55,001 bases of DNA, taken from the IMG/VR virus record IMGVR_UViG_3300037424_000895, positions 1 through 55,001 of that record; one strand, 5' to 3'. Shown here one piece after another: positions 17,216 to 46,285 of this stretch. The number at the start of each line of letters is the position of its first letter. The first letter of the stretch is position 1. A model generated the notes under the pieces. It was not told where the DNA came from. It saw only the letters and a program-made list of their open reading frames with translations, and did no database searches. A program made the position numbers and the translations under genes. Source of the DNA: a virus (Duplodnaviria; Caudoviricetes).

Positions 17216-17230
17216 CTTTCTCTTTCATTG

Positions 17231-17315: not shown

Positions 17316-17323
17316 GTTACGCA

Positions 17324-17521
17324 CTACTCTACCTTCAAGCATTGAGCGGTATAGAAGACGGTTGTCTCAGACTCATAAGAACCGCTGTACTTTACCGATC
17401 GATTGTGAACACCTGAGCTATACTGCTTCTCATAGTGTCTACAATCAACTTCACTCATCGGGATCTGTTGAGAAGAAACCCCGTTACTTACAATGATCGT
17501 CAAGATCAATATCCACTTCAT
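17324..17521 (-). CDS. Small protein with a signal peptide
   Basis: MKWILILTIIV N-terminus. Confidence 0.6.
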   Translation of the reverse strand: MKWILILTIIVSNGVSSQQIPMSEVDCRHYEKQYSSGVHNRSVKYSGSYESETTVFYTAQCLKVE

Positions 17522-17544
17522 GATATGCTTTCATGTATTATCCA

Positions 17545-17670
17545 GGATGACGCGGGTGGAATCGAACCACCGTACCCTCCATAGTCACCGATCTCTCAGC
17601 TAAGTCGGAATCGAACCGACAGTCTCCGAACCTCTTCAGGTCGTGCCTACCCCAACGTAGGACCGCGTCA
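17545..17670 (-). ncRNA. tRNA-like RNA with two T-arms
   Basis: Acceptor TGACGCG/CGCGTCA; GTCGG-TTCGATT-CCGAC and GGTGG-TTCGATT-CCACC. Confidence 0.7.
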
Positions 17671-17678
17671 AAGCAACT

Positions 17679-17918
17679 TCAAAATATTGCTACTGCTAAC
17701 AGCGTAATTCCTATTCCAAAGAGAAAAGATATCACTGCGACGATCAGGTTCACCAACAATAGCTTCGTGTAGAAGAAGTTGCTGATGATTCCAACCGCTT
17801 CTTCACGAATGATGGGAGCTGCTTCCTTAGCTAGCTTAACGGCCGTGTCTTTCATGCTGTCACTCGTATTGGTCAAGAATCGTTTACGGAAGTCGTTGGT
17901 AAGGACTTTGTTAGTCAT
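17679..17918 (-). CDS. Membrane protein
   Basis: C-terminal TM segment. Confidence 0.65.
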   Translation of the reverse strand: MTNKVLTNDFRKRFLTNTSDSMKDTAVKLAKEAAPIIREEAVGIISNFFYTKLLLVNLIVAVISFLFGIGITLLAVAIF

Positions 17919-17929
17919 GATCTTTCTTT

Positions 17930-18367
17930 CTATCTATGCTGCGGTTCCGGCTGGTTTCCATCCAAATGGATGGGACAATTTGCTGCGTGAATTTTGTACG
18001 GTGTTCCGAGACGTTCGGCGTTGTCCATTTTTGGACATGTACAGCCTGGAAAGTCAAAGAACCTGTGATGATTTGGATCTACCGGGAAGTTCCACAGTCG
18101 TTGTTGCTCATTCTCTAGAGCATCGAAAGTCGAAGCAAGCAACTTTAGCTTCAGAGGTTCATCGAGAACTTTCTTTGCAGCTTCGAACAGTTCCCATCGC
18201 AGTTGGTGGGACAGTTTTAGTGCCTCAAGTTGGTCGTCGGTAACTTTCTGCCTAGCCGCCAAAGCTGAATTTAGCACGGTGATGATCGTCTTGCCATCAG
18301 GGGCATACACGATGTATTTTCCCAATCCCATCTTTAGCAGATTTTGCTCGATGTTGTTCTCAGACAT
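17930..18367 (-). CDS. Hypothetical phage protein
   Basis: QQRLWNFP...GCTCPKMDN...CPIH Cys/His motif. Confidence 0.75.
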   Translation of the reverse strand: MSENNIEQNLLKMGLGKYIVYAPDGKTIITVLNSALAARQKVTDDQLEALKLSHQLRWELFEAAKKVLDEPLKLKLLASTFDALENEQQRLWNFPVDPNHHRFFDFPGCTCPKMDNAERLGTPYKIHAANCPIHLDGNQPEPQHR

Positions 18368-18389
18368 TTTGGAGTACCAGATAAAGAAA

Positions 18390-18463
18390 GGAGGGCTAGC
18401 AGGGAATCGAACCCCGGTTCATGGTCTTGGATGACCATCATTCTGCCATTGAATTACCAGCCC
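18390..18463 (-). tRNA. Atypical tRNA with an 8-nt anticodon loop (CATCCAAG; Trp/Gly-like)
   Basis: GGGCTGG/CTAGCCC acceptor, normal D- and T-arms, ATGGT-CATCCAAG-ACCAT. Confidence 0.65.
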
Positions 18464-18465
18464 AT

Positions 18466-18818
18466 GCTGAGGGGAGTCACCCCTCAGGTGATTCAATCCC
18501 TCGCGAATCCACAGGTGGAACGTTGGATTCGTGTATCGTCGCCGTGATAAGTAACATGAACTTGATCGCCCATGTAACCTCTACGAAGGCGCTGCTTTCT
18601 CGGCTCCTCGTGTGTACCTAGTAGTATTGCCAAGCGTTCCCGCTGTACCACAAGAGAAGTTGCGCGTTACAACTTCTCAAGGACCTTGGCTAGGTAGCCT
18701 ATAGCTCAACTGTCGCGTACTTTCAGTAGCACGAACTACTACAACATTCTAGGGTCCGAGCCTAGCGATGGACGCGTCAAGAATGAACCGGCCGATTCAT
18801 CCTCTATAACCGTCATGT
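18466..18818 (-). ncRNA. Candidate structured ncRNA between tRNAs
   Basis: ~350 nt, no credible ORF, several hairpins (CTGAGGGG/CCCCTCAG, GAGAAGTTG/CAACTTCTC, GAATCCA/TGGATTC). Confidence 0.55.
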
Positions 18819-18820
18819 TG

Positions 18821-18904
18821 GGTGCGAGATGAGGGACTCGAACCCTCACACCTTTCGGCGCTGGCTTCTAAGGCCAGTGCGTCTACCAATTCCGCCAACC
18901 TCGC
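18821..18904 (-). tRNA. tRNA-Leu(TAG)
   Basis: CTGGC-CTTAGAA-GCCAG, type II cloverleaf. Confidence 0.92.
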
Positions 18905-18907
18905 ATA

Positions 18908-19298
18908 CTTTGATACACCCCATTGCGCTCTCTTTCAAGTTCACACAATCAAAAGTTAACCTTGACTCAGGCTCTTGAACACTTCCGCGGTTCAAATTAC
19001 GTCCTATCCCTAGCAGTGACGTTATCTCTGCATTACCCGCCGGTACGGAATATCCACCGGAATCAATAGGCTGTGAACTAAGTTCCAGCTGTCACCTGAA
19101 GTGACCCGCGAATCTCAAGGACAGTCCTCGGTTATTTGTTCCCGAGGCACTGCCATGAGCCAGATCCTTCGCAGTAGGACCGGGTTTGTCTAACGATACG
19201 GCGATGCTCTTTACCTCGGCTTCGTATTACTTCCTAGGGAGCAACAGAGGATCGTTCAGGCTCTACCGTCTCAGCTAAGTCCCTTTCAGGCATCGTTA
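18908..19298 (-). ncRNA. Candidate structured ncRNA between tRNAs
   Basis: ~390 nt; closed domain TAACGAT...ATCGTTA, CCTCGG/CCGAGG, GTCAC/GTGAC, TTTGAT/ATCAAA. Confidence 0.55.
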
Positions 19299-19299
19299 C

Positions 19300-19385
19300 G
19301 GCAGAGGGTAACAGAATCGAACTGTCAACCATCGCTGGTTGGGACGGTTTTCAAGACCGTGTCCGCGCCATGCAGCCTACCCTCT
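19300..19385 (-). tRNA. tRNA-Ser(TGA)
   Basis: ACGGT-CTTGAAA-ACCGT, long variable arm, G73. Confidence 0.85.
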
Positions 19386-19389
19386 ATAT

Positions 19390-19615
19390 TCGGTTTCGTA
19401 TTCATCGCATGCGTTTAGCACTTTCCGTAAATCGGAGTTTAGGTTTTCACCATGCTACGATTCCTTGTAGGACTCAAGCTAACGAATACCGCTAGATCTA
19501 AAGTTTGCTAAGCAAGTAATCCACCGAAAGCTTCCTTGCTTTAAATCTCATGAGGCGACAAGATTAACGACCTTTGCTCTTATCTCTGGGACGGTCAAGC
19601 AGAGACCTCATGCTA
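19390..19615 (-). ncRNA. Candidate structured ncRNA
   Basis: No ORF; CATGAGG/CCTCATG, GTATTC/GAATAC and AGCAAG/CTTGCT stems. Confidence 0.45.
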
Positions 19616-19619
19616 GTGT

Positions 19620-19910
19620 TTAGTAATTCTCGCGAGTGATGCTAAACATCTCACGGAACTGTGTCGGTGTCAGATCAATATCCGTACCGAAGTATGTTTG
19701 CCGCAGTGTCTCGATAGACTTTCCCGGAGCAAGCTGTTCGATCAGCTTGGTCAGTTCAGCAGATTCACCAGCAATCAGCAACTTGATCATCTTCAGGAGA
19801 TCATTTGCTTCACCTACGGTCAAACAGCGTTTTGGACCGAATACATTTTTTGTGCAACGCTTGCCTTCAGGTGTGTACAGTTGCAGAACAGAAATGTACC
19901 AGAATTTCAA
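19620..19910 (-). CDS. Hypothetical early protein
   Basis: AAGGAG RBS; early promoter at 19964-19992. Confidence 0.7.
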   Translation of the reverse strand: MKFWYISVLQLYTPEGKRCTKNVFGPKRCLTVGEANDLLKMIKLLIAGESAELTKLIEQLAPGKSIETLRQTYFGTDIDLTPTQFREMFSITRENY

Positions 19911-19992
19911 CTTGTTCTCCTTTGCTTATAAATATCTGACGGATTCAAATATTTGATAAAGTCATTATATCACAGTACTTAAGAAAGTAAAC

Positions 19993-20649
19993 ATGAAAGT
20001 TAATTCTTTTTTCTACACTCACAATAACTTCACAGCTACCGATAGAACTCCGTTTACATATGTCATTCGTTGGAAAAAGACCAACGACATCTACTACGGC
20101 GTCAAGTTTGCAAAAGGCTGTCTTCCATCAGACCTTGGAACAACTTACTTTTCAAGCTCTAGCAGAATTAGAAATTTAATTAAGCAACACGGGGCTGAGA
20201 ACTTTGACTTTGAAGTTCGAAAAGTATTTCAAACTGTTGAAAAGGCAAGAGACTGGGAAACCAAAATTCTTACAAAGTTTCTTGAAAAGCCAAAATTTCT
20301 TAATAAGCACAAGAACGACGGATTCTGCAAGATAGACAACGCTGGAATTCGAAACCCTAGATATGGTACAATTTCAAATAAAGGCAGCCGTTGGTCTCTT
20401 TCAGAAGAAACAAAGCAAAAGATGAGAAAACCAAAGACCAAAGAACATGCTCAGAATGCAGCAAGAGCTAAGATCGGCAAAAGTGTATACCCTTCAGAAG
20501 AGACGAAGAAGAAAATGTCAATCTCTGGGAAAGCTAGAGTCAAAAATATAGTAACTTGTCCTCACTGTGGAAAAATAGGATTTGACAGAGGAATGACAAG
20601 ATATCACTTTGACAACTGCAAGACATTGAAACAACCTAAGATAGACTAG
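19993..20649 (+). mobile_element. GIY-YIG (Seg-like) homing endonuclease, antisense to the tRNA array
   Basis: FTYVI...IYYG, YFSSS, conserved E and N, SEETK.KM NUMOD3 repeats, CPHC; TATAAATA at 19927-19934. Confidence 0.85.
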
Positions 20650-20718
20650 AGTAGGACTTGAACCTACTTTCGCTTACCGAGATGTTTCACTCTGCGTTTT
20701 CCATTACGGGTCTAGTCT
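20642..20718 (-). ncRNA. tRNA-like RNA lacking a canonical anticodon arm
   Basis: AGACTAGA/TCTAGTCT stem, GTAGG-TTCAAGT-CCTAC T-arm, GTGAAAC-capped middle arm. Confidence 0.55.
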
Positions 20719-20719
20719 C

Positions 20720-20809
20720 GGTGGGTGCTGTAGGATTCGAACCTACGTTAGCTCCGCAGAGCCCTGGGGTTAATGCCCCAGTCGGAATCTCCAACTCCAT
20801 CGTACACCC
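20720..20809 (-). tRNA. Atypical type II (Tyr-like body) tRNA with a 6/8-nt anticodon loop (CATTAA)
   Basis: CTGGGG-CATTAA-CCCCAG, variable arm GGCTC/GAGCT, A73. Confidence 0.6.
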
Positions 20810-20895
20810 GGTGCGCGATGTCGGACTCGAACCGACACGCCCCTGAGGACCCGGACTTCTAAGGACCGGAAGACTACCAATTCCATCAATCGCGC
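20810..20895 (-). tRNA. tRNA-Leu(TAG), slightly degenerate
   Basis: CGGTC-CTTAGAA-GTCCG. Confidence 0.8.
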
Positions 20896-20986
20896 GGCGG
20901 AAGAATACGGAATCGAACCGTAAGCAGGTGTTATCCTGCTCGAGCTGCTTTCCAAGCAGACCTCAGCCCAGCTGAGTTAATCTTCC
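20896..20986 (-). tRNA. tRNA-Ser(GGA)
   Basis: CTGC-TTGGAAA-GCAG, long variable arm, G73. Confidence 0.88.
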
Positions 20987-21116
20987 ATGTGTTACTTGAT
21001 TACTTTTTCGTAGATCCTAACCGGAAGAACGATCGGGAACAGACATCCCAAGATAAAGTATGCCCACATCGTGTACAACCAGTTTGGCCATCCGTGCATG
21101 TTGATCTCCTTTAAAT

Positions 21117-21190
21117 TGGTGGACGTGACCGGAATCGAACCGACCAGGCTGCGTGGGTTTCACACAGAGCCTCCTGCCAGGCAGACGCCC
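21117..21190 (-). ncRNA. tRNA-like RNA ending in ACCA with no anticodon loop
   Basis: GGGCGT/ACGTCC acceptor, TTCGATT T-loop, long AGGCT...AGCCT arm capped by TGAAAC. Confidence 0.6.
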
Positions 21191-21193
21191 ATT

Positions 21194-21278
21194 TGGTGCC
21201 TCGAGAGGGACTCGAACCCTCAAGCCCTACGGGCGACGGATTTTAAGTCCGTTGCGTATACCATTCCACCACCGAGGC
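21194..21278 (-). tRNA. tRNA-Leu(TAA)
   Basis: ACGGA-CTTAAAA-TCCGT, type II, CCA. Confidence 0.93.
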
Positions 21279-21289
21279 ATTGTACTACC

Positions 21290-21343
21290 GGTGCGCATGG
21301 AGAGACTCGAACTCCCACGCCCTTTCGGACCCGAGATTCTTAG
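21290..21343 (-). pseudogene. 3' half of tRNA-Leu (apparent AAG anticodon); 5' half missing
   Basis: CTAAGAA-TCTCG, variable arm, T-arm and CATGCGC-ACC present; no D-arm or 5' acceptor strand. Confidence 0.7.
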
Positions 21344-21357
21344 AACTACCACAAATT

Positions 21358-21440
21358 TGGTACCAGCGGAGGGATTCGAACCCTCAATGGACTGAGCTCT
21401 CGACCCAGTAACTTTACCAATTCGTACTATCCACGCTGGC
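21358..21440 (-). tRNA. Atypical tRNA-Leu(GAG)-like with an extended acceptor-D connector
   Basis: GCCAGCG-TGGATAG...CTGGG-TCGAGAG-CTCAG-TCCATT; ACCA. Confidence 0.65.
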
Positions 21441-21450
21441 ATTTCTCTTG

Positions 21451-22020
21451 TTACTTATTGCTTCTGATATCTCTCATTTGCTCTGCTAGCGCCTTAAGTC
21501 GTTTGAACGACGTCGGTAAGCAGTTGTCAGGAACATCTGCAGCCTGTTCGACGACCAATGCAGCAAGTTCTCCAAACATCAAAACTGGGAGGTGTGTCTT
21601 CCGCATCATCTCGTCATGCTTTACATCAGTGATCTTGACACCGTCGATCTCAGTCACGATCTCATTGCAGATTTTCTGAAACATCTCGATGACTTCTTCA
21701 CTACCGGTAGAAGTATGTAAGACCTTCAGTGATAAGGTGACTGGGATACATCCAATGTTTGGACCCAACAGCCCAAAGGAAGGCAGAACCTGTATCGTGA
21801 CTCATACTGTGTTCGCGAATCTCTGAACTGAACAGATGTTCACGAGATGCTGTCCTACATGTTTTGCTGCTACTTCATCAAATGCAGAAACAGGAACCGA
21901 GAGAATCACCACGTCTGCTTCGTCTGAGTTCATTTCTGGAAGAATCTCAACATGAGGGGCAAGCTCTCTTGTTAGAAATGTACCGAAGACTCCTGAGCTG
22001 CCGATGATTGCAACTTTCAT
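21451..22020 (-). pseudogene. tyrA: Prephenate-dehydrogenase (TyrA)-like gene interrupted by an in-frame TGA
   Basis: MKVAIIGSSGVFG Rossmann start, DVVILSVP, CSVQ, xxGP, HDEMM; both ORFs in the same frame, separated by TGA at 21802-21804. Confidence 0.65.
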
Positions 22021-22045
22021 GTTAAGCTCCTGTTTAGTATAAAGA

Positions 22046-22122
22046 TGGTACCCCCGGAGGGACTCGAACCCTCAAAATCTACCTTCTGAAGATAGCATGT
22101 ATACCAATTCCATCACAAGGGC
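22046..22122 (-). tRNA. tRNA-Leu(CAG), short variable loop
   Basis: CTATC-TTCAGAA-GGTAG, ACCA. Confidence 0.88.
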
Positions 22123-22135
22123 ATTTACAAACTAC

Positions 22136-22237
22136 TGGCGGGCCTGCAGGGAATCGAACCCCGCTCAACGGTTTTCCGATGTACCCTCTTTGGAAGGCAC
22201 ATTGGAGACCGCTATATTACCGATATACGACAGACCC
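22136..22237 (-). tRNA. tRNA-Trp(CCA) with a 28-nt insertion after position 37
   Basis: GCGGT-CTCCAA-[28 nt]-A-ACCGT; otherwise canonical, G73-CCA. Confidence 0.8.
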
Positions 22238-22356
22238 GTTGTTACTTTGGGTGACGCAACGAATTGCGTCAATTCTTAGCAGCATAAGTATCTTGCTGCG
22301 TGTGACAATTTGGACATAAGAATCGCAGATTTTCCAATCGATGGTAGGAGTTCAAT

Positions 22357-22440
22357 TGGTGCCCTCGGTCGGATTCGAACCAACAAGAACTGCAGATTTT
22401 AAATCTGCTGGCTGTACCAATTTACCTTAGTCACGAGGGC
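22357..22440 (-). tRNA. Atypical tRNA-Leu(TAA) with an extended connector
   Basis: GCCCTCG-TGACTAA-GGT...GCAGA-TTTAAAA-TCTGC-AGTTCTT; ACCA. Confidence 0.8.
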
Positions 22441-22514
22441 GGCAGTTCATAGAGGAATCGAACCCCTGAGTGGAGATTTGGAGGCTCCCATGTTACCAAC
22501 TACATCAATGACCC
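22441..22514 (-). tRNA. tRNA-Trp(CCA) with some mismatches
   Basis: GGAGC-CTCCAAA-TCTCC, G73. Confidence 0.75.
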
Positions 22515-22587
22515 GGAGGGAAACTACGGAATCGAACCGCAATTTTGGAGGTTGGAGCTCCACGTCTTACCACTAGACCAGTAACCC
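22515..22587 (-). tRNA. CCA-anticodon tRNA with U73 and a mismatched acceptor stem
   Basis: TGGAG-CTCCAAC-CTCCA. Confidence 0.65.
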
Positions 22588-22593
22588 ATTTGA

Positions 22594-22684
22594 TGGCGGA
22601 AGATGGCGGATTTGAACCCCCTAACCCCTTTCAGGATCAAACAGCTTTCAAGGCTGTGCTGCTCTCCAAGACAGTAGATCTTCC
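22594..22684 (-). tRNA. tRNA-Ser(TGA)
   Basis: ACAGC-CTTGAAA-GCTGT, long variable arm, GCCA. Confidence 0.88.
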
Positions 22685-22771
22685 GGCTGAAGTTAAGAGA
22701 ATCGAACTCTCGTCCCTTTCGGGACGGCAACGGTTTTCGAGGCCGTTTGTACTCCATGTACGCTAACTTCC
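22685..22771 (-). tRNA. tRNA-Ser(CGA)
   Basis: ACGGC-CTCGAAA-ACCGT, long variable arm. Confidence 0.82.
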
Positions 22772-22773
22772 AA

Positions 22774-22859
22774 TGGTGGATGCCGAAAGATTCGAACTTT
22801 CTCAGCCAGTGGCAGAAGATTTACAGTCTTCCGAGACTCTCCAACGTCCCCGCGCATCC
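22774..22859 (-). tRNA. tRNA-Tyr(GTA)
   Basis: GAAGA-CTGTAAA-TCTTC, ACCA. Confidence 0.88.
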
Positions 22860-22860
22860 G

Positions 22861-23412
22861 TTACTTGTTGTAAAAGTCCTTCCAATTTGGAAGTTGAATC
22901 AATAAACTTTTACTCGAGAGAGTTTCTCTCTCATATTTCTTTTCACTGTGAATAATTCTATGATGATTTGGGCAAACATAGATCAAATTTGAAATTTCAT
23001 TTGTACCGCCGTTGCTCTTTTCAACAATGTGATGAACATCACCAATAGATTCATTCCATCCACAAATTGCACATCCAATTTTAGCTCTCTTAAAGATTTT
23101 AGAAATTGTTCTTGATGATAAATCCATCAACGAAACAGAACCTTCTTTAAAATGAACTACTTTTCTTTTGCAGTTATCACATACTATTTTTCTACCATTT
23201 TTAATTTTCTTCTTTTGAAAAGAAGTATTGCAATTTACACAAACATAATTAAAAATGACTTCTCTCTCAGGATATTGTCTCCCAGAAAGTTTCTTACTTA
23301 TTTTGTCTAAGGTTTCTTTGCTATGAACTCTTTGGTTTGCGCAAAATCTAGAACAAAATTTACCGCTTCCAAAACTTCCATCATTCTCTTTTCCACATCT
23401 TAAACAAATCAT
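22861..23412 (-). mobile_element. HNH homing endonuclease between two tRNA-Tyr genes
   Basis: CAICGW...DVHHI...GGTNEISNLIYVCPNHH; AT-rich; TATAAATA at 23437-23444. Confidence 0.88.
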
Positions 23413-23461
23413 TTGAGTCCTCTTTGACTAAAAATTTATTTATAGTCTAAGTGAATTCGAT

Positions 23462-23552
23462 TGGTGGATCTCGGGTCGAGTTGAACGCCAGGCCGCGAGG
23501 GAGATGGTTTACAGCCATCCGAGAAGACCGCTTCTCCTTATTGACAAGATCC
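23462..23552 (-). tRNA. Degenerate or atypical tRNA-Tyr(GTA)
   Basis: GATGG-CTGTAAA-CCATC; 8-bp acceptor, long connector, weak T-arm; ACCA. Confidence 0.65.
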
Positions 23553-23563
23553 AATGTTACTTC

Positions 23564-23647
23564 TGGTACCCTCGACCGGATTCGAACCGGTAAGAACTCT
23601 AGTTTTTGAAACTAGTGGCTGTGCCAATTTACCTAAGTCACGAGGGC
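23564..23647 (-). tRNA. Atypical tRNA-Leu(CAA) with an extended connector
   Basis: GCCCTCG-TGACTTA-GGT...CTAGT-TTCAAAA-ACTAG-AGTTCTT; ACCA. Confidence 0.8.
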
Positions 23648-23733
23648 GGCGGAAGATTGAGGGCACGATCCCCAGACCTTTCGGTCCCAACTGTTTAGCA
23701 AACAGCGCCGTCAACCTTGACGGGTAATCTTCC
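23648..23733 (-). tRNA. tRNA-Ser(GCT)
   Basis: GCTGT-TTGCTAA-ACAGT, long variable arm, G73. Confidence 0.85.
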
Positions 23734-23747
23734 AAAGATACTACTCC

Positions 23748-23762
23748 AAATTGTCAAAGATC
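23748..23762 (-). promoter_or_regulatory. boxA-like antitermination site at the head of the tRNA array
   Basis: GATCTTTGACAATTT versus rrn boxA TGCTCTTTAACAATTT. Confidence 0.6.
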
Positions 23763-23772
23763 GTTTACTTCT

Positions 23773-23809
23773 AAAGTAACTAGGGCGATTCCTTAGAATC
23801 GCCCTAGCT
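23773..23809 (-). terminator. Attenuator terminator hairpin
   Basis: AGCTAGGGCGATTC-TAAG-GAATCGCCCTAG followed by TTACTTT. Confidence 0.75.
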
Positions 23810-23836
23810 TAAATTCTTGAACTGAAAACTTGGTAC

Positions 23837-23935
23837 TTACACCTTGTTTATTCCTTCCAAGCAGCTAGGGCTCATCGTCAGCCAATATGACGATGAGAGT
23901 AGCAAACTGAGATAAGATAACAAAGTCGTTTTCAT
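23837..23935 (-). CDS. Leader peptide MKTTLLSYLSLLLSSSYWLTMSPSCLEGINKV (putative attenuator)
   Basis: Codons 5-19 are all Leu/Ser/Tyr/Trp; contains GCCCTAGCT, complementary to the terminator 5' arm; TATAAATA at 23944-23951. Confidence 0.8.
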   Translation of the reverse strand: MKTTLLSYLSLLLSSSYWLTMSPSCLEGINKV

Positions 23936-24016
23936 GATAAAAGTATTTATAGTTGAGCAACAATTTTCAAAACCGCTGGGGAGACTTTCGTCAACAAGAT
24001 CAGCAGGTGTTCCACG

Positions 24017-24071
24017 AGGAAACATTGACGATGATTGTCAGTGTTACGTACAATCATCGTCAATGTTTCCT
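24017..24071. repeat. Perfect 22-bp inverted repeat
   Basis: AGGAAACATTGACGATGATTGT-11 nt-ACAATCATCGTCAATGTTTCCT. Confidence 0.9.
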
Positions 24072-24084
24072 TTACTGTAAGAGA

Positions 24085-24114
24085 ATTGTATCACAAACTC
24101 TTACAAAAGTAAAC
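24085..24114 (-). promoter_or_regulatory. T4-type early promoter upstream of the leader and tRNA array
   Basis: GTTTACTTTT...TGATACAAT. Confidence 0.8.
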
Positions 24115-24128
24115 ATATTTGTTGAGTT

Positions 24129-24260
24129 AGGTGACTGGGCTTGATACCAGCTATAGTTCACGGCTCTCTCGATGTCCGAGCAGGCTACCCTGTGTGCTGT
24201 CATCACACTCGAATACGTGACTACATTTACTTGACGAACCGTGTCCATCCACGGCGCACC
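24129..24260 (-). ncRNA. tRNA-like ncRNA with an expanded central domain
   Basis: GGTG/CACC ends, CCGTG-GATGGA-CACGG D-like arm, GCTGG-TATCAAGC-CCAGT T-like arm. Confidence 0.55.
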
Positions 24261-24261
24261 T

Positions 24262-24336
24262 TGGATTGTCAGGACGGACTTGAACCGTCAGCTTTCACCC
24301 TCTCGGTGGACGTGCTATCATTACACTATCTGACAA
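24262..24336 (-). ncRNA. tRNA-like RNA with a non-canonical anticodon arm
   Basis: TTGTCAG/CTGACAA-T-CCA, GACGG-TTCAAGT-CCGTC, middle loop CGAGAGG. Confidence 0.65.
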
Positions 24337-24479
24337 TGTCGCAGCTGATAATCGACTACATTGACAAACTTTATTGAGATTTACTGTCTGAGCAACTTGG
24401 AACGATCCATTCTGATACTATGGGTACTTTCAAGTTACTACTCGTTGTCTCCATCGACGATTACGATACTAACAGAAGC

Positions 24480-33004: not shown

Positions 33005-34042
33005 TTACTTGCTTGCTTTGAACAGCTGTCTTACGATGCTGTCACCCTCACGGCTGAAACGTACGAAGCTGAAGATGCGTTCAGACCATCCAGACAGTTG
33101 AGTCCAACCGCGGATCTCAGAGATCGGTGTAGTACCTCCACCGTTCAAGTTCAACGCGATCTTCACACAGTCCTTCGTGAAGATCTTGGATGGGTCATTG
33201 AACCGCAGAGAGTTCACCTCCATGTCAGAGATCACAATGACGGTGTCTGGTTCGTAGCCCAGGCTTGATTTCATGTTAAGAGCTGCCTGCATGTCAGTAC
33301 CGCCTCCGAAGTTACGCTTCATGATCTGCTGATACATCGTGAAGATGGAGTCAGCCGGATTCAGCGGAACCGATACAGCATAGTCACTGAACATCGTGAA
33401 CGTCATGTTGAACGACTTTGACTTTGCCGAAGCCTTAACCAATGCTGCTCCGAAGATGGAACCCAACTTCATCGGAGAATTGTTGGTAGTGTCTTCACGA
33501 CCACCGCGGTAGCCGCCGTAACCTGAGAAGTTCATCATAGAGCCGGAGCAGTCCAGGATGATCCACACGTTCTTGCTCAGTTCTGGCATGTTCTTGAACG
33601 AGTGCTCGAGAGCATCATTCAGCGCTGTCAGGATGACTTGCGGTACGCTGTTTGCACGAGCCACCTCATATGCGTTCACGAAACCAAACGGCAACTGCTT
33701 GGACTTCTCCACAGCCTTTGGATTGCTGATGCGGTCAGCAACCTTCTGCCAAGTCTCGTTCGAGATGCCGGCTTCCTTCATGTTTCGCAGGTTTCGGATC
33801 AGCGCCATGTAACCCAGAGAGCCAGAACCCTCGCGGTTGATGAGCTCGGTCCACAGTGCAGCCTTTGACTTCTGTTCTTCCTTCGGAAGCTGACCGTTCT
33901 TGGACAGCTCAACTTCCCAAGTGTACGGAGATTCCAGTGTTTCGTCCATGATCTTCTTGAAGATCTCGGTGTGGACTTCATCGATCGGCTTCGGGTGAAC
34001 GATGCGCAGCAGTTGTTTAAACGTTAACTGAGGTGTTGACAT
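33005..34042 (-). CDS. rsr: Ro60/TROVE protein, C-terminal part (TROVE C-half plus vWA domain)
   Basis: LLRIVHPKP, TWEVELS, LGYMALIRNLRNM, SKQLPF, DCSGSM MIDAS, GGT, ISDME; own AAGGA RBS and ATG. Confidence 0.9.
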   Translation of the reverse strand: MSTPQLTFKQLLRIVHPKPIDEVHTEIFKKIMDETLESPYTWEVELSKNGQLPKEEQKSKAALWTELINREGSGSLGYMALIRNLRNMKEAGISNETWQKVADRISNPKAVEKSKQLPFGFVNAYEVARANSVPQVILTALNDALEHSFKNMPELSKNVWIILDCSGSMMNFSGYGGYRGGREDTTNNSPMKLGSIFGAALVKASAKSKSFNMTFTMFSDYAVSVPLNPADSIFTMYQQIMKRNFGGGTDMQAALNMKSSLGYEPDTVIVISDMEVNSLRFNDPSKIFTKDCVKIALNLNGGGTTPISEIRGWTQLSGWSERIFSFVRFSREGDSIVRQLFKASK

Positions 34043-34682
34043 TATTTTCTTCCTTATGAAGGTTCTTATGACATTTGACACAGAGTGTCAACCCATTTTC
34101 CAGATCAAAGATAAGATCTGGAAATTCACTTACTTTCTTGATATGATGAGCTTCTATATATTGCCTACCACGCTTTAAACATTTTTGACAAGTCCAATCG
34201 TCTCTCTTGAAAACTTCAGTTCTCCATTCTTTGTACTCTGGAGAATTTCGAATAAGAGTGTTCTTAGAACTTGTACCACCCTTCCAATTCCAATGAGATT
34301 CTTTACTCTTACCGTATTTGATCCTATCAGGATGTGTTAACTTTGTTAAACCTTTATTCCAAGTTTTTCTTCCCCTTGTGGCAGTAGAAATGTTTTGTTT
34401 TCGTTCTTCTGAAAATTTCATCCCGCTAAGAGAATTAGCAATTTTATACTTATGCTCTACGGTTAGAATTCTATTGCTTGCAGCTTTACTTAAAAGTTCA
34501 AATGTCTGATATCGTTCACGTTCTTTATCTCTTTCAATTCCAAACTTTTTGAATTTATTAGCAATCGCGGTAAAAGAACATTTAAAACGTAATGAAATTT
34601 CATAGATAGAAAGTTTTTGACCCCAATAAAGATCAATTAGTTCTTCTTTACTAACCTTAACTCTCGCATATTTTTCTTTCAT
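34017..34682 (-). mobile_element. Free-standing HNH homing endonuclease inserted in the Ro60 gene
   Basis: WNKG, HWNWKGG, YKEWR..VFKRD..TCQKC, AHHI, NGLTLC..CH; AT-rich; CATAAATA at 34704-34711 plus RBS hairpin. Confidence 0.92.
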
Positions 34683-34718
34683 ACTAGCACCTTTCGATAC
34701 TAGTATTTATGAGAAAGC

Positions 34719-43110: not shown

Positions 43111-43323
43111 TTAGATAAAAATTTGTGATACACATGATGCTTCGATCTTCACCTTCCCCTTCACTTCTGGATGAGTCTTGATGAAGGTTTTGATCAATCT
43201 TTCGCGATCGTCCAGCGCGATCATACATGCTGTGATCGTGGGAAATGACTGTACATTAACTCGCTCAGGGAATTGTCCTGGAGTTGAGAATGACATGACT
43301 AGAACCCATGTTGTCAAAAGCAT
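43111..43323 (-). CDS. Small hypothetical protein
   Basis: 70-aa ORF. Confidence 0.55.
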   Translation of the reverse strand: MLLTTWVLVMSFSTPGQFPERVNVQSFPTITACMIALDDRERLIKTFIKTHPEVKGKVKIEASCVSQIFI

Positions 43324-43326
43324 AGG

Positions 43327-43830
43327 CTAGACCTTGTATGAACGACGCAGTTCTTCTACCAACTCGATCGTCTCCCAGACGTTACCTTTGTGGAAGATGC
43401 TATGACCACCTTTGGCTGCCCACTCATTGACGTTAGAGTGAGTATCGTCGATCAGGACCTTATTTGGTCCCGAGTGCAGTTGCTTGTCCTTCTTTGGCAG
43501 CACGATGGTTGTGTGCTCAGGACCAAACTTCTTGGCAACCCACTCAACCTTTTGCATGCGAGAGCGCTCTCCGGGAGGAGCTCCTGTCAAGAAGATTGGG
43601 TTGAATTGTTTAGTGTATGTCCAGAGATGCTCGGCGTCAGGCATGAATTCCAGCGAACCGAAGAACTGCTTGTCGGCCATGACGATCTTCCAGAGGCCTT
43701 TGCCCAGTTCATGTGGGTGCTTCCCGGAAAGTTTGAAGACGCGTCCTTCAAAGTCAGCAAAGACTCCGTCAAGGTCAAGGTAGAATCCCTCGAAGGGGTT
43801 GAAGTCGATTGTGGGAACTTTCTTTGCCAT
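43327..43830 (-). CDS. 5'(3')-deoxyribonucleotidase-like HAD hydrolase
   Basis: DLDGVFADF, LT, K..W, LIDD, W...GG. Confidence 0.88.
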   Translation of the reverse strand: MAKKVPTIDFNPFEGFYLDLDGVFADFEGRVFKLSGKHPHELGKGLWKIVMADKQFFGSLEFMPDAEHLWTYTKQFNPIFLTGAPPGERSRMQKVEWVAKKFGPEHTTIVLPKKDKQLHSGPNKVLIDDTHSNVNEWAAKGGHSIFHKGNVWETIELVEELRRSYKV

Positions 43831-43873
43831 CTTTTTCTTTCTATCACAGATACTACTTGTTAAATTACCAGGT

Positions 43874-44075
43874 TGGCTGATCTGGGTTGGATTCGAACCA
43901 ACCTACCTCTAGCTTAGAAAGCTAGCGCTCTACGATGTGCTCTAAAATTGCTTACCTTCAAGGAGATGGCCTATCTCGTTCCGGTTTGGTCCTAGAAGTA
44001 CACGCCACTAACGTACCGGATGCTAGAGCTTAAGTTAGATCCGGGTTGCTCGTGAGTCCAATGAGCTACAGACCA
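43874..44075 (-). tRNA. tRNA-Arg(TCT) with a 124-nt insertion in the D-loop
   Basis: TGGTCTG-TA-GCTC-ATTGGA-[43933-44056]-TA-GAGC-G-CTAGC-TTTCTAA-GCTAG...TTCGAAT...CAGATCA-G-CCA. Confidence 0.82.
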
Positions 44076-44079
44076 ATTG

Positions 44080-44490
44080 TTACTTTTTCAACAGCTTGAA
44101 TGCACCTTCTAATTTAACGATACCGCGGATCAATTCAACCTTATCTTGAAGGTTGTTTGATTCGACCGGTTTATGAGGCGGTTCAACTGACAGTGTGATG
44201 TGGTAGAAACTTCCGTCAGAACGAACCGCATCCTTACCGATCGTGATCGCAATGCACTCTACCCCGTCACCGCGAGCGATGCCTCTCGCGAAGACCGGCG
44301 GAGCAGAATCAAGCAATGTTACGAAGTTTTTCAGCTTTTCTGGAGTCAGGTTGAACTCGATTGTGACGTGGTGACAGATCACCTTAGAGAACTGAGGCCG
44401 AAACAACCGCAGAAGGTGTGCACGACTCTTTTCCGAGATTTCATACGCGAGATAGTGACCGGGCTGAAAATTCATAACATTCCTCATCAA
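44080..44490 (-). CDS. 2H phosphoesterase (tRNA-ligase CPDase-like)
   Basis: Two HxT motifs (HHVTI and YHITL), KPVESN; early promoter at 44499-44528. Confidence 0.75.
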   Translation of the reverse strand: MMRNVMNFQPGHYLAYEISEKSRAHLLRLFRPQFSKVICHHVTIEFNLTPEKLKNFVTLLDSAPPVFARGIARGDGVECIAITIGKDAVRSDGSFYHITLSVEPPHKPVESNNLQDKVELIRGIVKLEGAFKLLKK

Positions 44491-44538
44491 GATGATGCAT
44501 TATATCACGGTAGTCATCAAAAGTAAACTGTTACTTGA

Positions 44539-44949
44539 TCATTCACTTTCGCTTACTGGATTGCCACTGACAGTGACAGCAGCAGCAACTGCATGTTGAC
44601 GCTGACCTGACAGGAGCAGGTCAGCGATGTTTTCAGGCAGACGCTCACGTTTGATCTTCTTGAGTGAGCGGTGAGCAGCTTTTGCCGCATCGTCGACAGA
44701 GCCAGACTTTTCCACCAAACCCTGCAACAGTTCATTGCGAGATTGTTTCGAGAGGAACCTGAACAGATTGTCATCACGTAGACGCGCGATGCGTTCTACA
44801 ATGAAGACCAGATCTTCGATCTGGATGATTAGATCCTGCAGTACGACGTCATTAATGAAGACCAGATCTTCGATCTGGATGATTAGATCCTGCAGTACGA
44901 CGTCATTGTCGATCACTTGAGTTGGGACGGTTGCTGTTACATCGGTCAT
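44539..44949 (-). CDS. Hypothetical protein with an 18-aa tandem duplication
   Basis: NDVVLQDLIIQIEDLVFI occurs twice. Confidence 0.7.
   Translation of the reverse strand: MTDVTATVPTQVIDNDVVLQDLIIQIEDLVFINDVVLQDLIIQIEDLVFIVERIARLRDDNLFRFLSKQSRNELLQGLVEKSGSVDDAAKAAHRSLKKIKRERLPENIADLLLSGQRQHAVAAAVTVSGNPVSESE
44800..44907. repeat. Perfect 54-bp tandem duplication
   Basis: 44800-44853 is identical to 44854-44907. Confidence 0.95.
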
Positions 44950-45458
44950 TTTGATTCTCCTTTGAGGCCGGGTAGATCTTCTACTGCCAATGGTCCCTCT
45001 CCGTAGAGAGAAGTTCCATAGACTCGCAGAAGGGTTGAAAATACATGTCGATTGTACACGTCATAACTTGGAGGAAAGTCCAAGTTATAGATACGTGCGA
45101 TGAACTTTGCCACCGCAGCAGATCTTGAGATGCCAGCTTCACAGTGACAGATTGCGTGTAGAGTATCATCTTGATGTTGTTTCAAGAACTTCAAGATCTT
45201 GACCGCGTCATCTTCGTTAAAGAGTCGGTAATGTTTAACATCTGCAGCGTTCATGAGACCAGGATCGCGATCATCATACTCGAGTCTCAGGACTGCCTTC
45301 CAAGTATCATCATGCAACTTTGCTGGCGAGCAGTTCCACGAGACGGTGTCAGGAATCGCGGGTGTCGTCATGGAGATCAAGACACGCGTGTCTTGTCCGC
45401 TGGGTTCCCAGAAGATTTCAGCTCGTTGTTTTGAGACGAAGTTAGTGATCGTGAACAT
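44946..45458 (-). CDS. Cys-based (PTP/dual-specificity) phosphatase
   Basis: HCEAGISRSAA (CX5R). Confidence 0.9.
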   Translation of the reverse strand: MFTITNFVSKQRAEIFWEPSGQDTRVLISMTTPAIPDTVSWNCSPAKLHDDTWKAVLRLEYDDRDPGLMNAADVKHYRLFNEDDAVKILKFLKQHQDDTLHAICHCEAGISRSAAVAKFIARIYNLDFPPSYDVYNRHVFSTLLRVYGTSLYGEGPLAVEDLPGLKGESK

Positions 45459-46285
45459 CAGCAGCTTTCAGTTCGAGTTGAAAACTCTTTTGAGATCTTG
45501 GTGAAGTTGGAATGGTACCCAGGAATCTTGTAATAACCTTCACCCAAACATCCCCAATACAACTCTTGCACAGCATTATCTGTCATCTTAGGCAAGATCT
45601 CCTTGATCACTTCTGGGGTCTGTCCGAGAATGTACTTGATCGGTCTGATGATCGTGTGATGGCCAGGCTCTTGAGCGAGTTTCAGGTAGTCCTCGATCGA
45701 GGAGATCGCGGCAAAATTCAGCTTAGCCTCGATGTCAGGAGAGTCTCCTACGTAGTTTGCGTAATATAGGAAGAACACATCGTTATCGATGTTGTCACGA
45801 TCGAGGATGTCTACGAGTTTTTCTTCGTGTGTACCGGTGATGCGAACATCGTCTATGAAGATGAGAGTCTTCCCCTCGATGAAGTCGCGGTTGAGATAGA
45901 ATGAGTCATTGTCGATGAGACTCTTACGTTTGTCTTTTGACAAGAATCCGTAGTCATTCGTGTAGCTGACCTTGCGGTGGATGATCGAGTAGTCCAAGTG
46001 ACTGCCGTTTGAACTGACCAGCAATTCATTGAGCTTGTTCGCGAAGTGCATCGTCAGCACAGTAGCAGCATTCTTGATGAAGTTGTACGGCGACGGAATG
46101 ACGACACAGTTGTTAGCGAGAAGATGATCAGAGTGTGCCTCAAAGAACTTGATCGCTAGCTCTCGTCCTAACTTCTTTGCTGCAGAATCACTACCGAACT
46201 TTAGCCTGGAGTACTCATGGGCAGAAAACCCAGAAGATTGCAGATCACAAAAGGAGTGAACGAAAAAGCGTTGATGGTTACCCAT
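45458..46285 (-). CDS. Phosphoribosyltransferase-like protein (PRTase_2 type)
   Basis: YSRLKFGS, IFIDDVRITGTHE PRPP loop. Confidence 0.85.
   Translation of the reverse strand: MGNHQRFFVHSFCDLQSSGFSAHEYSRLKFGSDSAAKKLGRELAIKFFEAHSDHLLANNCVVIPSPYNFIKNAATVLTMHFANKLNELLVSSNGSHLDYSIIHRKVSYTNDYGFLSKDKRKSLIDNDSFYLNRDFIEGKTLIFIDDVRITGTHEEKLVDILDRDNIDNDVFFLYYANYVGDSPDIEAKLNFAAISSIEDYLKLAQEPGHHTIIRPIKYILGQTPEVIKEILPKMTDNAVQELYWGCLGEGYYKIPGYHSNFTKISKEFSTRTESC

Follow-up and report, generated by a model that had tools for sequence, protein, structure and literature searches.

Can a tRNA gene in a phage of bacteria hold a structured element in its D-loop and, if so, is that element removed from the transcript or kept? 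The question is raised by a 55,001-nt stretch of a tailed phage (Caudoviricetes; positions 1 to 55,001 of IMG/VR record IMGVR_UViG_3300037424_000895), here called the window, in which a first-pass annotation made from the letters had placed a tRNA-Arg(TCT) whose D-loop is split by 124 nt, directly after a 2H phosphodiesterase gene. We know of no tRNA splicing in bacteria or their phages other than that of group I introns, and in our literature search no phage tRNA with an insert in its D-loop came up. The 'introns' of megaphage tRNAs lack an explanation, and this locus is a well-defined test case: a covarying RNA of ~200 nt whose insert occupies a new site, the D-loop's variable pocket, and which lies beside a block of end-healing genes and has a relative in a complete 345-kb phage.

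A tRNA-Arg gene split within its D-loop

Reading of the minus strand bears out the split layout. From 44075, the 5' piece runs through a 7-nt acceptor strand, UA, the D-stem strand GCUC and AUUGGA (ending at 44057), and it supplies the missing acceptor and D-stem strands. The insert is followed by UA and the second D-stem strand, GAGC. The anticodon arm has 5 bp and the loop UUUCUAA, the variable loop 5 nt, and the T arm 6 bp and the loop UUCGAAU; the 7-nt 3' acceptor strand, G73 and CCA then complete the gene at 43874. The parts are as follows:

43874..44075, minus strand: RNA gene in full, 202 nt; its tRNA-Arg(UCU)-like body holds a D-loop module (sequence reading; covariance model R1)
44057..44075, minus strand: tRNA 5' part, with acceptor 5' strand 44075-44069, U8 A9, D-stem 5' strand 44066-44063 and D-loop A14..G18 G19 A20 (sequence reading)
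43933..44056, minus strand: insert, 124 nt, in the D-loop between G19/A20 and U-A21 (sequence reading)
43874..43932, minus strand: tRNA 3' part, with U-A21, D-stem 3' strand 43930-43927, anticodon arm 43925-43909 (anticodon UCU 43918-43916), variable loop 43908-43904, 6-bp T arm 43903-43885, acceptor 3' strand 43884-43878, G73 43877 and CCA 43876-43874

The rest of the tRNA, CCA included, is intact save for the 6-bp T stem, as had been annotated, and all 51 of the modelled pairs in the window's copy are standard. Measured against a canonical tRNA, the gene has the 7-bp acceptor, 4-bp D and 5-bp anticodon stems, but a 124-nt interruption in place of a contiguous 72-95 nt cloverleaf and, in each of the five family members described below, a T stem of 6 bp in place of the 5 bp that make a 12-bp acceptor/T stack. 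Taken alone, the 204-nt stretch has an unexceptional folding energy (z = -1.51; 18 of 200 shuffles fold equally well). Two DNA runs, X1 and X2, of which X1 may be the source sample itself, contain no difference, no joint and no insert-less form over 43300-44700; the phage occurs at sediment sites.

Standard tRNA finders overlook the gene, as the first-pass annotation had anticipated: ARAGORN reports 13 tRNAs in the window, none of them at 43874-44075, and the Rfam tRNA model (RF00005) mis-calls the 3' part, matching the 3' 72 nt only (43878-43949; 31.1 bits, gathering score 29) in an alignment that mispairs the acceptor and D stems. When the insert is removed by script, ARAGORN finds a tRNA in 45 of 45 variants across the five members; for the window's copy, all nine boundary variants are called tRNA-Arg(tct), in keeping with the normal Arg D-arm that deletion had been said to give. 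As this locus shows, tRNA-like genes of phages are under-counted by tRNA finders. Elsewhere in the window, another tRNA gene (22139-22237) has an insert at position 37/38, the classical intron position, and Agrobacterium phage Atu_ph07, which infects A. tumefaciens C58, likewise has an insert at 37/38; an unannotated tRNA gene of that phage, at 323906-324024, has 47 extra nt in its anticodon loop.

Four relatives in other phage sequences

In Rfam, against which a search had been proposed, the insert matches no family at E <= 10, and four relatives were found in phage or metagenome contigs. Covariance model R1 was run over 32 sources (the window plus 31 loci) and gave 13 matches at E <= 1, five with the full split layout and eight to uninterrupted tRNA-like sequences. 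The five are the window's copy (255.2 bits) and four further members in contigs of uncultured phages or metagenomes: L010 (252.6), L013 (94.9), L002 (78.8) and L005 (48.6). L002 lies in G001, the complete 345-kb phage; the window's own record, G000, is a fragment. These are not near-clonal copies, since the 2H proteins of related loci are 55-66% identical. Common to all five are an insert of 120-125 nt between G19 and A21, the 7-bp acceptor, the 6-bp T stem and G73; CCA is encoded in four, and L002 has CC only. Because four related phage sequences keep the module at the same spot, it is a new conserved RNA element, and together the five form an undescribed family of phage RNAs that combine a tRNA-Arg(UCU)-derived body with a ~120-125 nt module of two hairpin domains.

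Other searches covered several further collections. With blastn, 43300-45500 had no match among GenBank phages; in viral contigs, single-protein locus searches (2H, NT5C) confirmed no further member, and exact 25- and 23-nt patterns had 0 matches each. Degenerate patterns in viral contigs found G001 only, together with the stretches L036 and L037, which on reading look like chance and have no R1 match. A junction pattern occurs in genome contigs at 120 loci or more, and among the matches listed none has tRNA context; loci L119-L158 of this set offer little flanking sequence to inspect, and the sole R1 match in the set is an ordinary 75-nt tRNA elsewhere in L092. Over the complete cultured jumbo phages Atu_ph07, Phosso and SCTP-2, chosen as carriers of distant 2H homologues, R1 gave 33 matches, none with a D-loop module.

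The insert folds into two covarying hairpin domains

Folded singly, all five inserts give the same two hairpin domains, the first of them a stack of three helices. In the window's copy, these are:

44005..44055, minus strand: insert domain 1, with P1 44055-44052/44008-44005, P2 44050-44048/44012-44010 and P3 hairpin 44044-44039/44021-44016
43937..44003, minus strand: insert domain 2, with P4 44003-44000/43940-43937, P5 43996-43990/43947-43941 and P6 hairpin 43977-43973/43967-43963

The P3 loop has 17 nt and holds the palindrome CUUAAG (44034-44029), and the P6 loop is AGGCC (43972-43968).

The family comprises five sequences in about three lineages and its counting alignment was fitted to its own model, which favours that model; in this five-sequence alignment, 94.3% of cells pair, a share that falls to 75.4% in shuffles and to 32-41% once partners are slid. 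Both sides change in 31 of the 51 pairs, a count reached by none of 500 shuffles. Five of the seven acceptor pairs, which span the 124-nt insert, change on both sides (97.1% of cells paired), as do three of the five anticodon-stem pairs (100%); the D stem is invariant and, like the T stem, has 100% of its cells paired. Covariation cannot prove the sixth T-stem pair because this outermost pair is an invariant G-C. Within the insert, changes on both sides affect three of seven pairs in P1 and P2 together (91.4% paired), all six in P3 (100%), six of seven in P5 (85.7%) and four of five in P6 (96%), P4 being weaker (80% paired). Structural conservation of the insert, on which the first-pass annotation had in part staked its reading, is thus found in all five members, with compensatory changes, and the split layout is more than chance: it recurs in four other sequences with such changes.

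Not every helix drawn from the single sequence survives the comparison. Four stems had been proposed, all of them complementary in this copy: GAGAT/ATCTC (P6) and CCGGAT/ATCCGG (P3) are kept in the relatives, but the long-range stems GCTCTAG/TTAGAGC and TCCGGT/ACCGGA are paired only in the window's copy and L010 (64.7% of cells, against 58.2% when shuffled). A CUUCUAGG/CCUUGAAG stem was likewise dropped because a change in L010 breaks it while fitting P5.

Constraint on the insert and peculiarities of the tRNA body

Between the window's copy and L010, the insert is 92.0% identical, the exons 97.4% and the 2H gene 78.3%; between L013 and L002, the insert is 82.8% identical and the gene 74.8%. 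Judged by these identities, conservation is higher in the insert than in the neighbouring gene, and the insert bears the mark of purifying selection. It is present as a single copy in both G000 and G001 and is therefore not a spreading repeat. The GGCC of the P6 loop is invariant in all five members, as is the 3' GCC(A) end, and that the two might pair in T-box fashion is only an idea. Every lineage has a palindrome of 6 nt or longer in the P3 loop (CUUAAG, CUCGAG/ACUCGAGU or UCUAGA), an argument made post hoc, with single-loop shuffle frequencies of 0.006 to 0.19.

The body has oddities of its own. Its anticodon loop is UUUCUAA in three of the five (the window's copy, L010 and L013), UAUCUAA in L005, with A33, and CUAAUAA in L002, where ARAGORN reads aat. 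A switch of the 15-48 tertiary pair from U-A to G-C is consistent with a variable loop of 5 nt that leads into a T stem of 6 bp. Such a T stem would be expected to make the RNA a poor substrate for EF-Tu. The main tRNA cluster of G001 also has an ordinary tRNA-Arg(tct), and at L028 an uninterrupted tRNA-Arg(UCU) with a normal 5-bp T stem adjoins a distant 2H homologue. As far as its sequence tells, the tRNA body is not that of a normal decoder.

A 2H phosphoesterase gene and other end-healing functions lie nearby

Upstream of the RNA, the window holds these features:

44080..44490, minus strand: 2H phosphoesterase gene, longest ORF 136 aa, with a 131-aa form from 44475 (motifs and predicted fold)
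44499..44527, minus strand: sigma-70-like promoter match, TTTACT-17-TATAAT with upstream TG, 10 of 12 (consensus match only)
44539-44949, minus strand: small protein gene of unassigned function, kept together with the 2H gene
44946-45458, minus strand: Cys-phosphatase-like protein with an HCxxGxxRS loop (weak Pfam DSPc match, E 4.7e-4, below cut-off)

The 2H-like ORF ends with TAA at 44082-44080 and the RNA starts 4 nt on, at 44075, the spacing that had been annotated. No Pfam family matches the protein, and its profile drew a chance match only (E 0.51) from PDB sequences; its HxT motifs (H41/T43 and H97/T99) are invariant in 26 aligned sequences. Its AlphaFold2 model (pLDDT 94.3) aligns in VIA-align with the CNPase catalytic domain (Z 11.5, rmsd 2.8 Å, 129 of 136 residues) and with the CPDase domain of fungal Trl1 (6u05; Z 9.5), and Foldseek gives 2H-type proteins throughout among the matches listed (ranks 1-50, with gaps; best E 6.7e-3). 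By motifs and predicted fold, the upstream gene is a member of the 2H phosphoesterase superfamily of the CNPase/Trl1-CPDase kind, in agreement with its first assignment. It and the RNA share a strand in every one of the five members, with the 2H gene 4 nt to about 1.2 kb upstream, and the promoter match (1 site, with 1.8 expected in shuffles) is a possible start of a 2H-RNA co-transcript. The same gene order of phosphatase, unknown and 2H is found at L005, with protein identities of 60% and 55%.

An RNA ligase (PF09414) is encoded in G000 and G001, an AAA_33/PNK-like kinase in the window, and a Ro/TROVE protein in G000 (33005-34081) and G001, on the same strand as the RNA and ~10 kb and ~9.5 kb from it, respectively. 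The genes present (ClpP, NAMPT, HNH, SegE-like) are those of a bacterial phage, and distant relatives infect Proteobacteria.

Signatures of introns, ribozymes and Y RNAs

The first-pass annotation had offered a new small intron or ribozyme class, or a tRNA-scaffolded noncoding RNA; a conserved structured element outside Rfam is indeed present, but no self-splicing or self-cleaving feature came to light. Searched with 4227 Rfam families, curated introns and ribozymes included, under permissive filters, 43700-44300 matched tRNA only at E <= 10. The hammerhead, twister, pistol, hatchet, hairpin and HDV-like models, which cover described, non-permuted forms, gave no match at E <= 10, and no Rfam match to a group I core (P3-P9) was found in the insert, which has 124 nt in two separate hairpin domains. 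Exon ends are GGA or GGU and the last insert base is G in four members and U in L005, so the ends are not those of a group I intron; a group I cut after U would remove G18/G19. Group II ends (GUGYG...AY) are absent, there is no Rfam domain V match, and no nucleotide is conserved at either junction across the five members.

Searched with our own script, a strict BHB (hBHBh', two 3-nt bulges, 4-bp helix) occurs in none of the five; relaxed forms occur in four, against 43-61% of shuffled inserts, and the one common to the window's copy and L013 is broken in L010. The EndA endonuclease (PF01974) is absent from both phage records, the fragment G000 and the complete G001, with the control positive in four archaeal genomes; Tpt1 (PF01885) is absent from the same two. 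A Y RNA reading was rejected: a regex for the YrlA motif GNCGAAN0-1G matched none of the five members, RF02553 is unmatched, the TROVE gene is ~10 kb off as against ~4 kb, and no Y RNA-like Rfam family was found beside the TROVE gene at E <= 5.

A retained module or an intron

What we tentatively prefer, at somewhat less than even odds, is a tRNA-based RNA in which the module stays in place as two additional arms and which acts together with the RNA end-healing genes beside it. The RNA would be transcribed with, or just behind, the 2H gene and trimmed like a tRNA, through its 7-bp acceptor stem, G73 and, in four of five members, encoded CCA. It would function as one ~200-nt molecule, in which the tRNA body provides folding, processing and stability and the two extra arms leave the tRNA elbow. 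The arms would carry the function via their conserved loops, the 6-nt palindrome in domain 1 and GGCC in domain 2, and these may serve to contact a partner, be it a protein or, through loop-loop pairing, a second copy; the RNA could then be a decoy or scaffold in tRNA damage and repair during infection. We infer retention, partner binding and the link to repair, the last of these from context: a Cys-phosphatase, a small protein and a cyclic phosphodiesterase alongside, and an RNA ligase, a PNK-like kinase and Ro/TROVE elsewhere in the window. Retention is favoured because neither splicing machinery nor splicing signals were seen (Rfam, strict BHB, PF01974), and we lean to a tRNA-scaffolded RNA because of the non-canonical body (the T stem in all five, odd anticodon loops in two) together with the strong conservation of the insert. 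Positions 20-20b of tRNA are solvent-exposed and the natural site of D-loop length variation, so the L shape could survive the addition of a module at this point.

Several observations pull against retention and make a protein-dependent intron a serious rival, if on balance a rather unlikely one. A host or phage nuclease would cut both junctions by structure, and phage enzymes (the 2H cyclic phosphodiesterase, Cys-phosphatase, PNK-like kinase and RNA ligase) would rejoin tRNA-Arg(UCU). The intact cloverleaf, the canonical UUUCUAA loop in three of five, CCA in four and the 45 of 45 ARAGORN calls after removal are as expected of an intron-containing tRNA gene; the enzyme encoded upstream in every member has its closest folds in CNPase and the CPDase of a tRNA-splicing ligase (Z 11.5 and 9.5), ligase PF09414 is present in both records and the kinase in the window, and in other tRNAs of the phage group the classical intron position is occupied by an insert (22139-22237; Atu_ph07), to which may be added the 'enigmatic' tRNA introns that the part of the Lak megaphage report available to us describes (PMC6784885). 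However, the PF01974 endonuclease is lacking even from the complete G001, relaxed BHB forms are no more frequent than in shuffled inserts, the junctions show no conservation, and Tpt1, which would deal with a junction 2'-phosphate, is absent from both records (a host could supply it). The spliced product would also keep its 6-bp T stem and, in two of five, a non-canonical anticodon loop; the insert is under more constraint than a passive intron requires; and 2H enzymes and ligases belong, as far as the consulted part of PMC7824862 goes, to a common jumbo-phage tRNA-repair kit, introns or not. A broader proposal, and an unlikely one, is that jumbo phages of bacteria have their own protein-based tRNA splicing, with the D-loop module and the small anticodon-loop inserts of other tRNAs in this phage group as shape-recognised introns that a CNPase/Trl1-like phosphodiesterase, Cys-phosphatase, PNK-like kinase and Rnl-type ligase would heal and seal; if true, the bacterial world would have a tRNA splicing pathway in the fungal or plant style, and an endonuclease would be needed besides.

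The remaining explanations are less probable still. Excision without re-ligation, as when RNase III removes intervening sequences from rRNA, would leave a two-piece tRNA held by its acceptor and D stems, or else make the tRNA a processing handle and the released module the functional RNA. Domain 2 makes up one long helix that is almost continuous, the 7 + 4 bp by which the two tRNA pieces are joined are either strictly kept or compensated, and no other non-tRNA sequence of the locus is as well conserved as the insert; yet its stems, segments of 4-10 bp interrupted by internal loops, are short by the standards of RNase III substrates, and a 5' fragment of 18-19 nt would be of doubtful stability, so that we think this scenario quite improbable. 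We hold out slightly less hope for a small ribozyme of a new kind that would excise itself from the D-loop by self-cleavage or self-splicing. The conserved two-domain structure, the invariant loop nucleotides and the final G in four of five inserts suit such an element, and the adjoining cyclic phosphodiesterase would suit the 2',3'-cyclic phosphate ends left by self-cleavage, but none of the 4227 Rfam families matches at E <= 10, and known group I introns have about 200 nt and up, with a P3-P9 core, well above the 124 nt found here. Moreover, the junctions lie at the bases of separate hairpin domains that no conserved pairing joins, the 5' junction base varies (C, U, A), the exon lacks the terminal U of a group I P1, and the phage group I introns seen to 2014 were, in the portion of PMC3984707 at hand, all in protein genes. 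A dead tRNA gene with a small, functionless insertion would explain why standard finders reject the gene and why its folding energy is not unusual, and is hardly credible: covariation between copies that are not near-clonal contradicts it, as both tRNA halves persist in five diverged copies and compensatory changes span the insert, which is single-copy in both records, more conserved than the flanking gene and present in identical form in two DNA runs (one of which may be the source sample). Between retention of the module, which we prefer, and its splicing, either outcome would be new: a tRNA with two functional extra arms, and hence a natural tRNA scaffold, or a phage tRNA splicing route.

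Comparison with known systems

Lak megaphages likewise have phage tRNA genes with conserved inserts outside Rfam, identified, according to the available part of that report, with tRNAscan in eukaryotic mode (Devoto et al., 2019; PMC6784885). No machinery is known for removing either these or the D-loop insert, the host being bacterial in both cases, and the Lak inserts probably sit at the anticodon-loop position; within what that source describes, the phage RNA differs from them in its D-loop site, its 124-nt two-domain fold and its non-canonical tRNA body. The non-canonical, BHB-type tRNA introns of archaea, which lie in the D-loop and elsewhere (those of Aeropyrum pernix, for example, in the portion of PMC3241643 consulted), share a site outside the anticodon loop and invisibility to standard finders, but need a BHB and EndA, whereas the phage locus has a strict BHB in none of five members, no PF01974 and the gene content of a bacterial phage. 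Bacterial group I tRNA introns resemble the phage element as inserts in tRNAs of bacterial type that could be removed without proteins, and differ in matching Rfam and, in the same part of PMC3984707, in lying in the anticodon loop, where the phage insert is in the D-loop, has 124 nt and matches no Rfam family. YrlA and other Y RNAs of bacteria and phages also fuse a tRNA-like module to a structured part in genomes that encode Ro/TROVE; as described in the section of Chen et al. (2014; PMC4201824) available to us, YrlA has no anticodon arm, ends at a Ro-binding stem, carries the GNCGAAN0-1G motif and is encoded no more than 4 kb from Ro, whereas the phage RNA has a complete cloverleaf, the motif in none of five members, a distance of ~10 kb to TROVE and no match to RF02553.

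The helices that leave the tRNA core, and an acceptor plus T stack of 13 bp, also recall class II tRNAs and tRNA-Sec. The former have a long variable arm and the latter a 13-bp acceptor/T helix. Here the additions are two D-loop arms of about 120 nt, and the 13 bp divide as 7 + 6 rather than as 8 + 5 or 9 + 4.

An interrupted tRNA-Arg gene downstream of a 2H phosphodiesterase

The window is a 55-kb piece of an uncultured virus record (completeness estimate, 15%) with the gene content of a jumbo phage of bacteria: it encodes NAMPT, NMNAT-Nudix, CoaE, ClpP, HNH and SegE-like endonucleases, RNase H, RNA ligase and a Ro/TROVE protein, and more than 13 tRNA genes lie clustered at 17-24 kb. On its minus strand, a 2H-like phosphodiesterase ORF ends at 44080, and an RNA gene begins four bases later:

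44075-44057, minus strand: 5' tRNA piece (acceptor 5' strand, U8 A9, D-stem 5' strand, D-loop to G18 G19 A20)
44056-43933, minus strand: insert, 124 nt
within 43932-43874, minus strand: 3' tRNA piece (U-A21, D-stem 3' strand, anticodon arm with UCU, 5-nt variable loop, 6-bp T arm)
within 43932-43874, minus strand: end of the 3' piece (acceptor 3' strand, G73, CCA)

The minus-strand sequence agrees with the coordinates and description of an interrupted tRNA in the first-pass annotation, which had also expected standard tRNA finders to miss it: the gene is absent from the ARAGORN output for the window, and the Rfam tRNA model aligns just 43878-43949 (31.1 bits), taking insert bases as a poor acceptor and D stem. 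The Rfam comparison proposed at that stage returned nothing but tRNA in 43700-44300 at E <= 10, with no match to group I, group II or ribozyme families. The insert is present once in the window's record, and its folding energy by itself is ordinary (z = -1.51). After scripted removal of the insert, ARAGORN called a tRNA in 45 of 45 boundary variants; this approach therefore cannot fix the exact boundaries.

Relatives of the RNA

Exact-word and single-protein searches of GenBank phages and viral contigs found no relatives of the RNA. Of 56 candidate homologues of the 2H protein, 48 passed E <= 0.001, and a profile of the window protein plus 25 homologues, picked for diversity and size of contig, fetched three viral and 30 metagenome loci, corresponding to 31 distinct contigs. 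A covariance model (R1) that spans both tRNA pieces and the insert, built from the window copy and locus L010 with the structure described here and run over the window and the 31 loci, matched the full layout in L010 (252.6 bits), L013 (94.9), L002 (78.8) and L005 (48.6). L002 sits in a second phage record, G001 (345 kb, terminal repeats, rated complete). Among the distinct loci with a 2H protein of 50% identity or more, 4 of 12 carry the RNA; several of the others are short contigs (about 1.2 kb) that leave little flanking sequence. Pattern and R1 searches found no more members in viral contigs, in three cultured jumbo phages or among the matches listed from GTDB genomes. Distant 2H homologues (32-36% identity) occur in the cultured Proteobacteria jumbo phages Atu_ph07, Phosso, SCTP-2 and RsoM2USA.

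R1 also matched an uninterrupted, ordinary tRNA-Arg(UCU) with a normal 5-bp T stem (L028:2667-2742); a distant 2H homologue (35%) lies about 385 nt upstream of it, so the association of 2H gene and tRNA-Arg(UCU) may predate the insert.

Structure and constraint of the insert

The RNA constitutes a family with conserved structure and selection on the insert. Folded alone, each of the five inserts adopts one common architecture, in which domain 1 is a stack of helices P1-P2-P3 with a terminal loop of 7-17 nt, and domain 2 comprises a short closing helix P4, a P5 of 7-10 bp, an internal loop and a P6 hairpin with an (A/U)GGCC loop. Two stems listed in the first-pass annotation (GCTCTAG/TTAGAGC and TCCGGT/ACCGGA) are not kept in the relatives. 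In the five-sequence alignment, 94.3% of cells are paired, versus 75.4% when shuffled and 32-41% with partners slid. Both sides have changed in 31 of 51 pairs over the whole structure, matched by 0 of 500 shuffles (P3, 6/6; P5, 6/7; P6, 4/5), counts that come from five sequences of about three lineages in an alignment fitted to, and leaning towards, R1. The insert's sequence is itself under constraint besides its structure: the window copy and L010 share 92.0% of the insert versus 78.3% of the 2H gene, and L013 and L002 share 82.8% versus 74.8%. The P3 loop holds a palindrome of at least 6 nt in every lineage, with differing sequences, and the P6 loop holds GGCC or UGGCCA, which suggests self-complementary contacts between such loops, a post hoc reading with single-loop chance frequencies of 0.006-0.19.

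A hexamer, UCUAAC, that has its UCUAA core in common with the UCU anticodon loop is found again within inserts: in the P3 loop of the window copy (44039-44034, P3 strand/loop) and L010, and in domain 2 of L013 and L002, on the 3' side of the internal loop. Chance could account for it, or the hexamer may be a second copy of an anticodon-loop-like site.

The tRNA body

The 5' piece pairs with the distant 3' strand in every one of the five sequences, and five of seven acceptor pairs have changed on both sides; this covariation across the insert rules out a decayed gene, and we consider a dead gene scarcely credible. All members share a 6-bp T stem, G73, G18 G19 directly before the insert and U-A21 directly after it; four encode CCA, and L002 has only CC. 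Position 15 and the final variable-loop base switch jointly (U/A in four members, G/C in L005), consistent with a variable loop of 5 nt and six pairs after it. Three members have a canonical anticodon loop; that of L005 has A33, and that of L002 reads AAU. The main tRNA cluster of G001 also holds an ordinary tRNA-Arg(tct).

The 2H gene and its neighbourhood

The upstream gene had been called a 2H (CPDase-like) enzyme, and its protein indeed has two invariant HxT motifs and a confident structure model, which among the structural matches listed comes closest to the CNPase catalytic domain (Z 11.5) and to the fungal tRNA ligase CPDase (Z 9.5); Acb1 scored 6.5. A promoter-like site lies upstream of the gene. 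L005 shares the arrangement Cys-phosphatase, small unknown protein, 2H, and G001 keeps the order 2H, RNA, NT5C with small ORFs inserted. Both phages carry RNA ligase genes; according to PMC7824862, jumbo phages commonly have such sets of end-healing and sealing genes for the repair of tRNA.

In the small gene between phosphatase and 2H (44539-44949, minus strand), a stretch of about 18 codons is exactly repeated in tandem (NDVVLQDLIIQIEDLVFI is present twice), and two identical hairpins 54 nt apart (44878, 44824) mark the repeat; the homologue in L005, for which the alignment begins only at residue 33, is without the duplication. Directly upstream of 2H in G001, on the opposite strand to it, is a GIY-YIG-like gene with repeated basic modules (L160:2452-3132, plus strand) that is missing from that place in the window.

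Fate of the insert

We rate the RNA among interrupted or extended tRNA-like RNAs; our literature searches found no phage tRNA described with an insert in its D-loop. Our tentative preference is that the insert would be kept in the RNA as part of a tRNA-like molecule, because the body is non-canonical in every member, because two members have drifted in their decoding features with all else kept, because the insert is the most constrained non-tRNA sequence of the locus, and because it occupies the one place in the D-loop where tRNA structure tolerates extra bases. Protein-dependent splicing is a serious rival, if itself rather doubtful: three members have an intact cloverleaf and UCU loop, the adjacent CPDase is of splicing-ligase type, inserts occupy the classical intron site in other tRNA genes of the phage group, and unexplained tRNA introns are reported for Lak megaphages (PMC6784885). 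None of the five members has a strict bulge-helix-bulge, relaxed forms are no commoner than in shuffled inserts, and neither phage record encodes an EndA-type endonuclease or Tpt1. That the insert marks a new phage tRNA splicing route is unlikely.

Excision of the insert without ligation, or release of the module, appears improbable, and a new ribozyme still less probable; no conserved bases were found at the insert junctions of the five members, and phage group I introns all lie in protein genes according to a 2014 review (PMC3984707).

A Ro/TROVE-domain gene is kept in both phages (window 33005-34081, minus strand; G001 332372-332893, minus strand), on the same strand as the interrupted tRNA and about 10 kb from it. 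A YrlA reading was rejected: the Ro-binding motif is missing in all five members, and the TROVE gene is ~10 kb off in both phages. No Y RNA-like Rfam match was found beside the TROVE gene at E <= 5, the 640-nt gap 34082-34718 included.

Other unusual tRNA genes

The tRNA genes at 17230-24400 are densely packed and lie on the minus strand throughout. Several are duplicated (Leu x5, Ser x4, Trp x2), and endonuclease genes are scattered among them (HNH, 22861-23412; SegE-like GIY-YIG, 19993-20649). Odd members include an ARAGORN "tRNA-???" with a 2-nt anticodon (18390-18463) and partial Rfam matches at 23575-23635 and 22368-22427. At 22139-22237 (minus strand), adjoining two ordinary tRNA-Trp genes (22441-22587), a 99-nt Rfam match over the whole tRNA model (41.8 bits) was missed by ARAGORN; by eye it is tRNA-Trp(CCA)-like with an insert of ~27 nt just 3' of the anticodon, pairing with the anticodon region into a long arm. 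Annotated tRNA-Ile(tat) of Sinorhizobium phage Phosso (L168:6202-6294), about 3 kb downstream of a distant 2H homologue, is unusually long at 93 nt. In the cultured Agrobacterium phage Atu_ph07 (MF403008.1, about 323906-324024; L186:106-224, minus strand), a tRNA gene missing from the annotation (Rfam, 57.2 bits) is interrupted after A37 of its GUA (Tyr) anticodon loop by 47 nt that include a T-arm-like hairpin.
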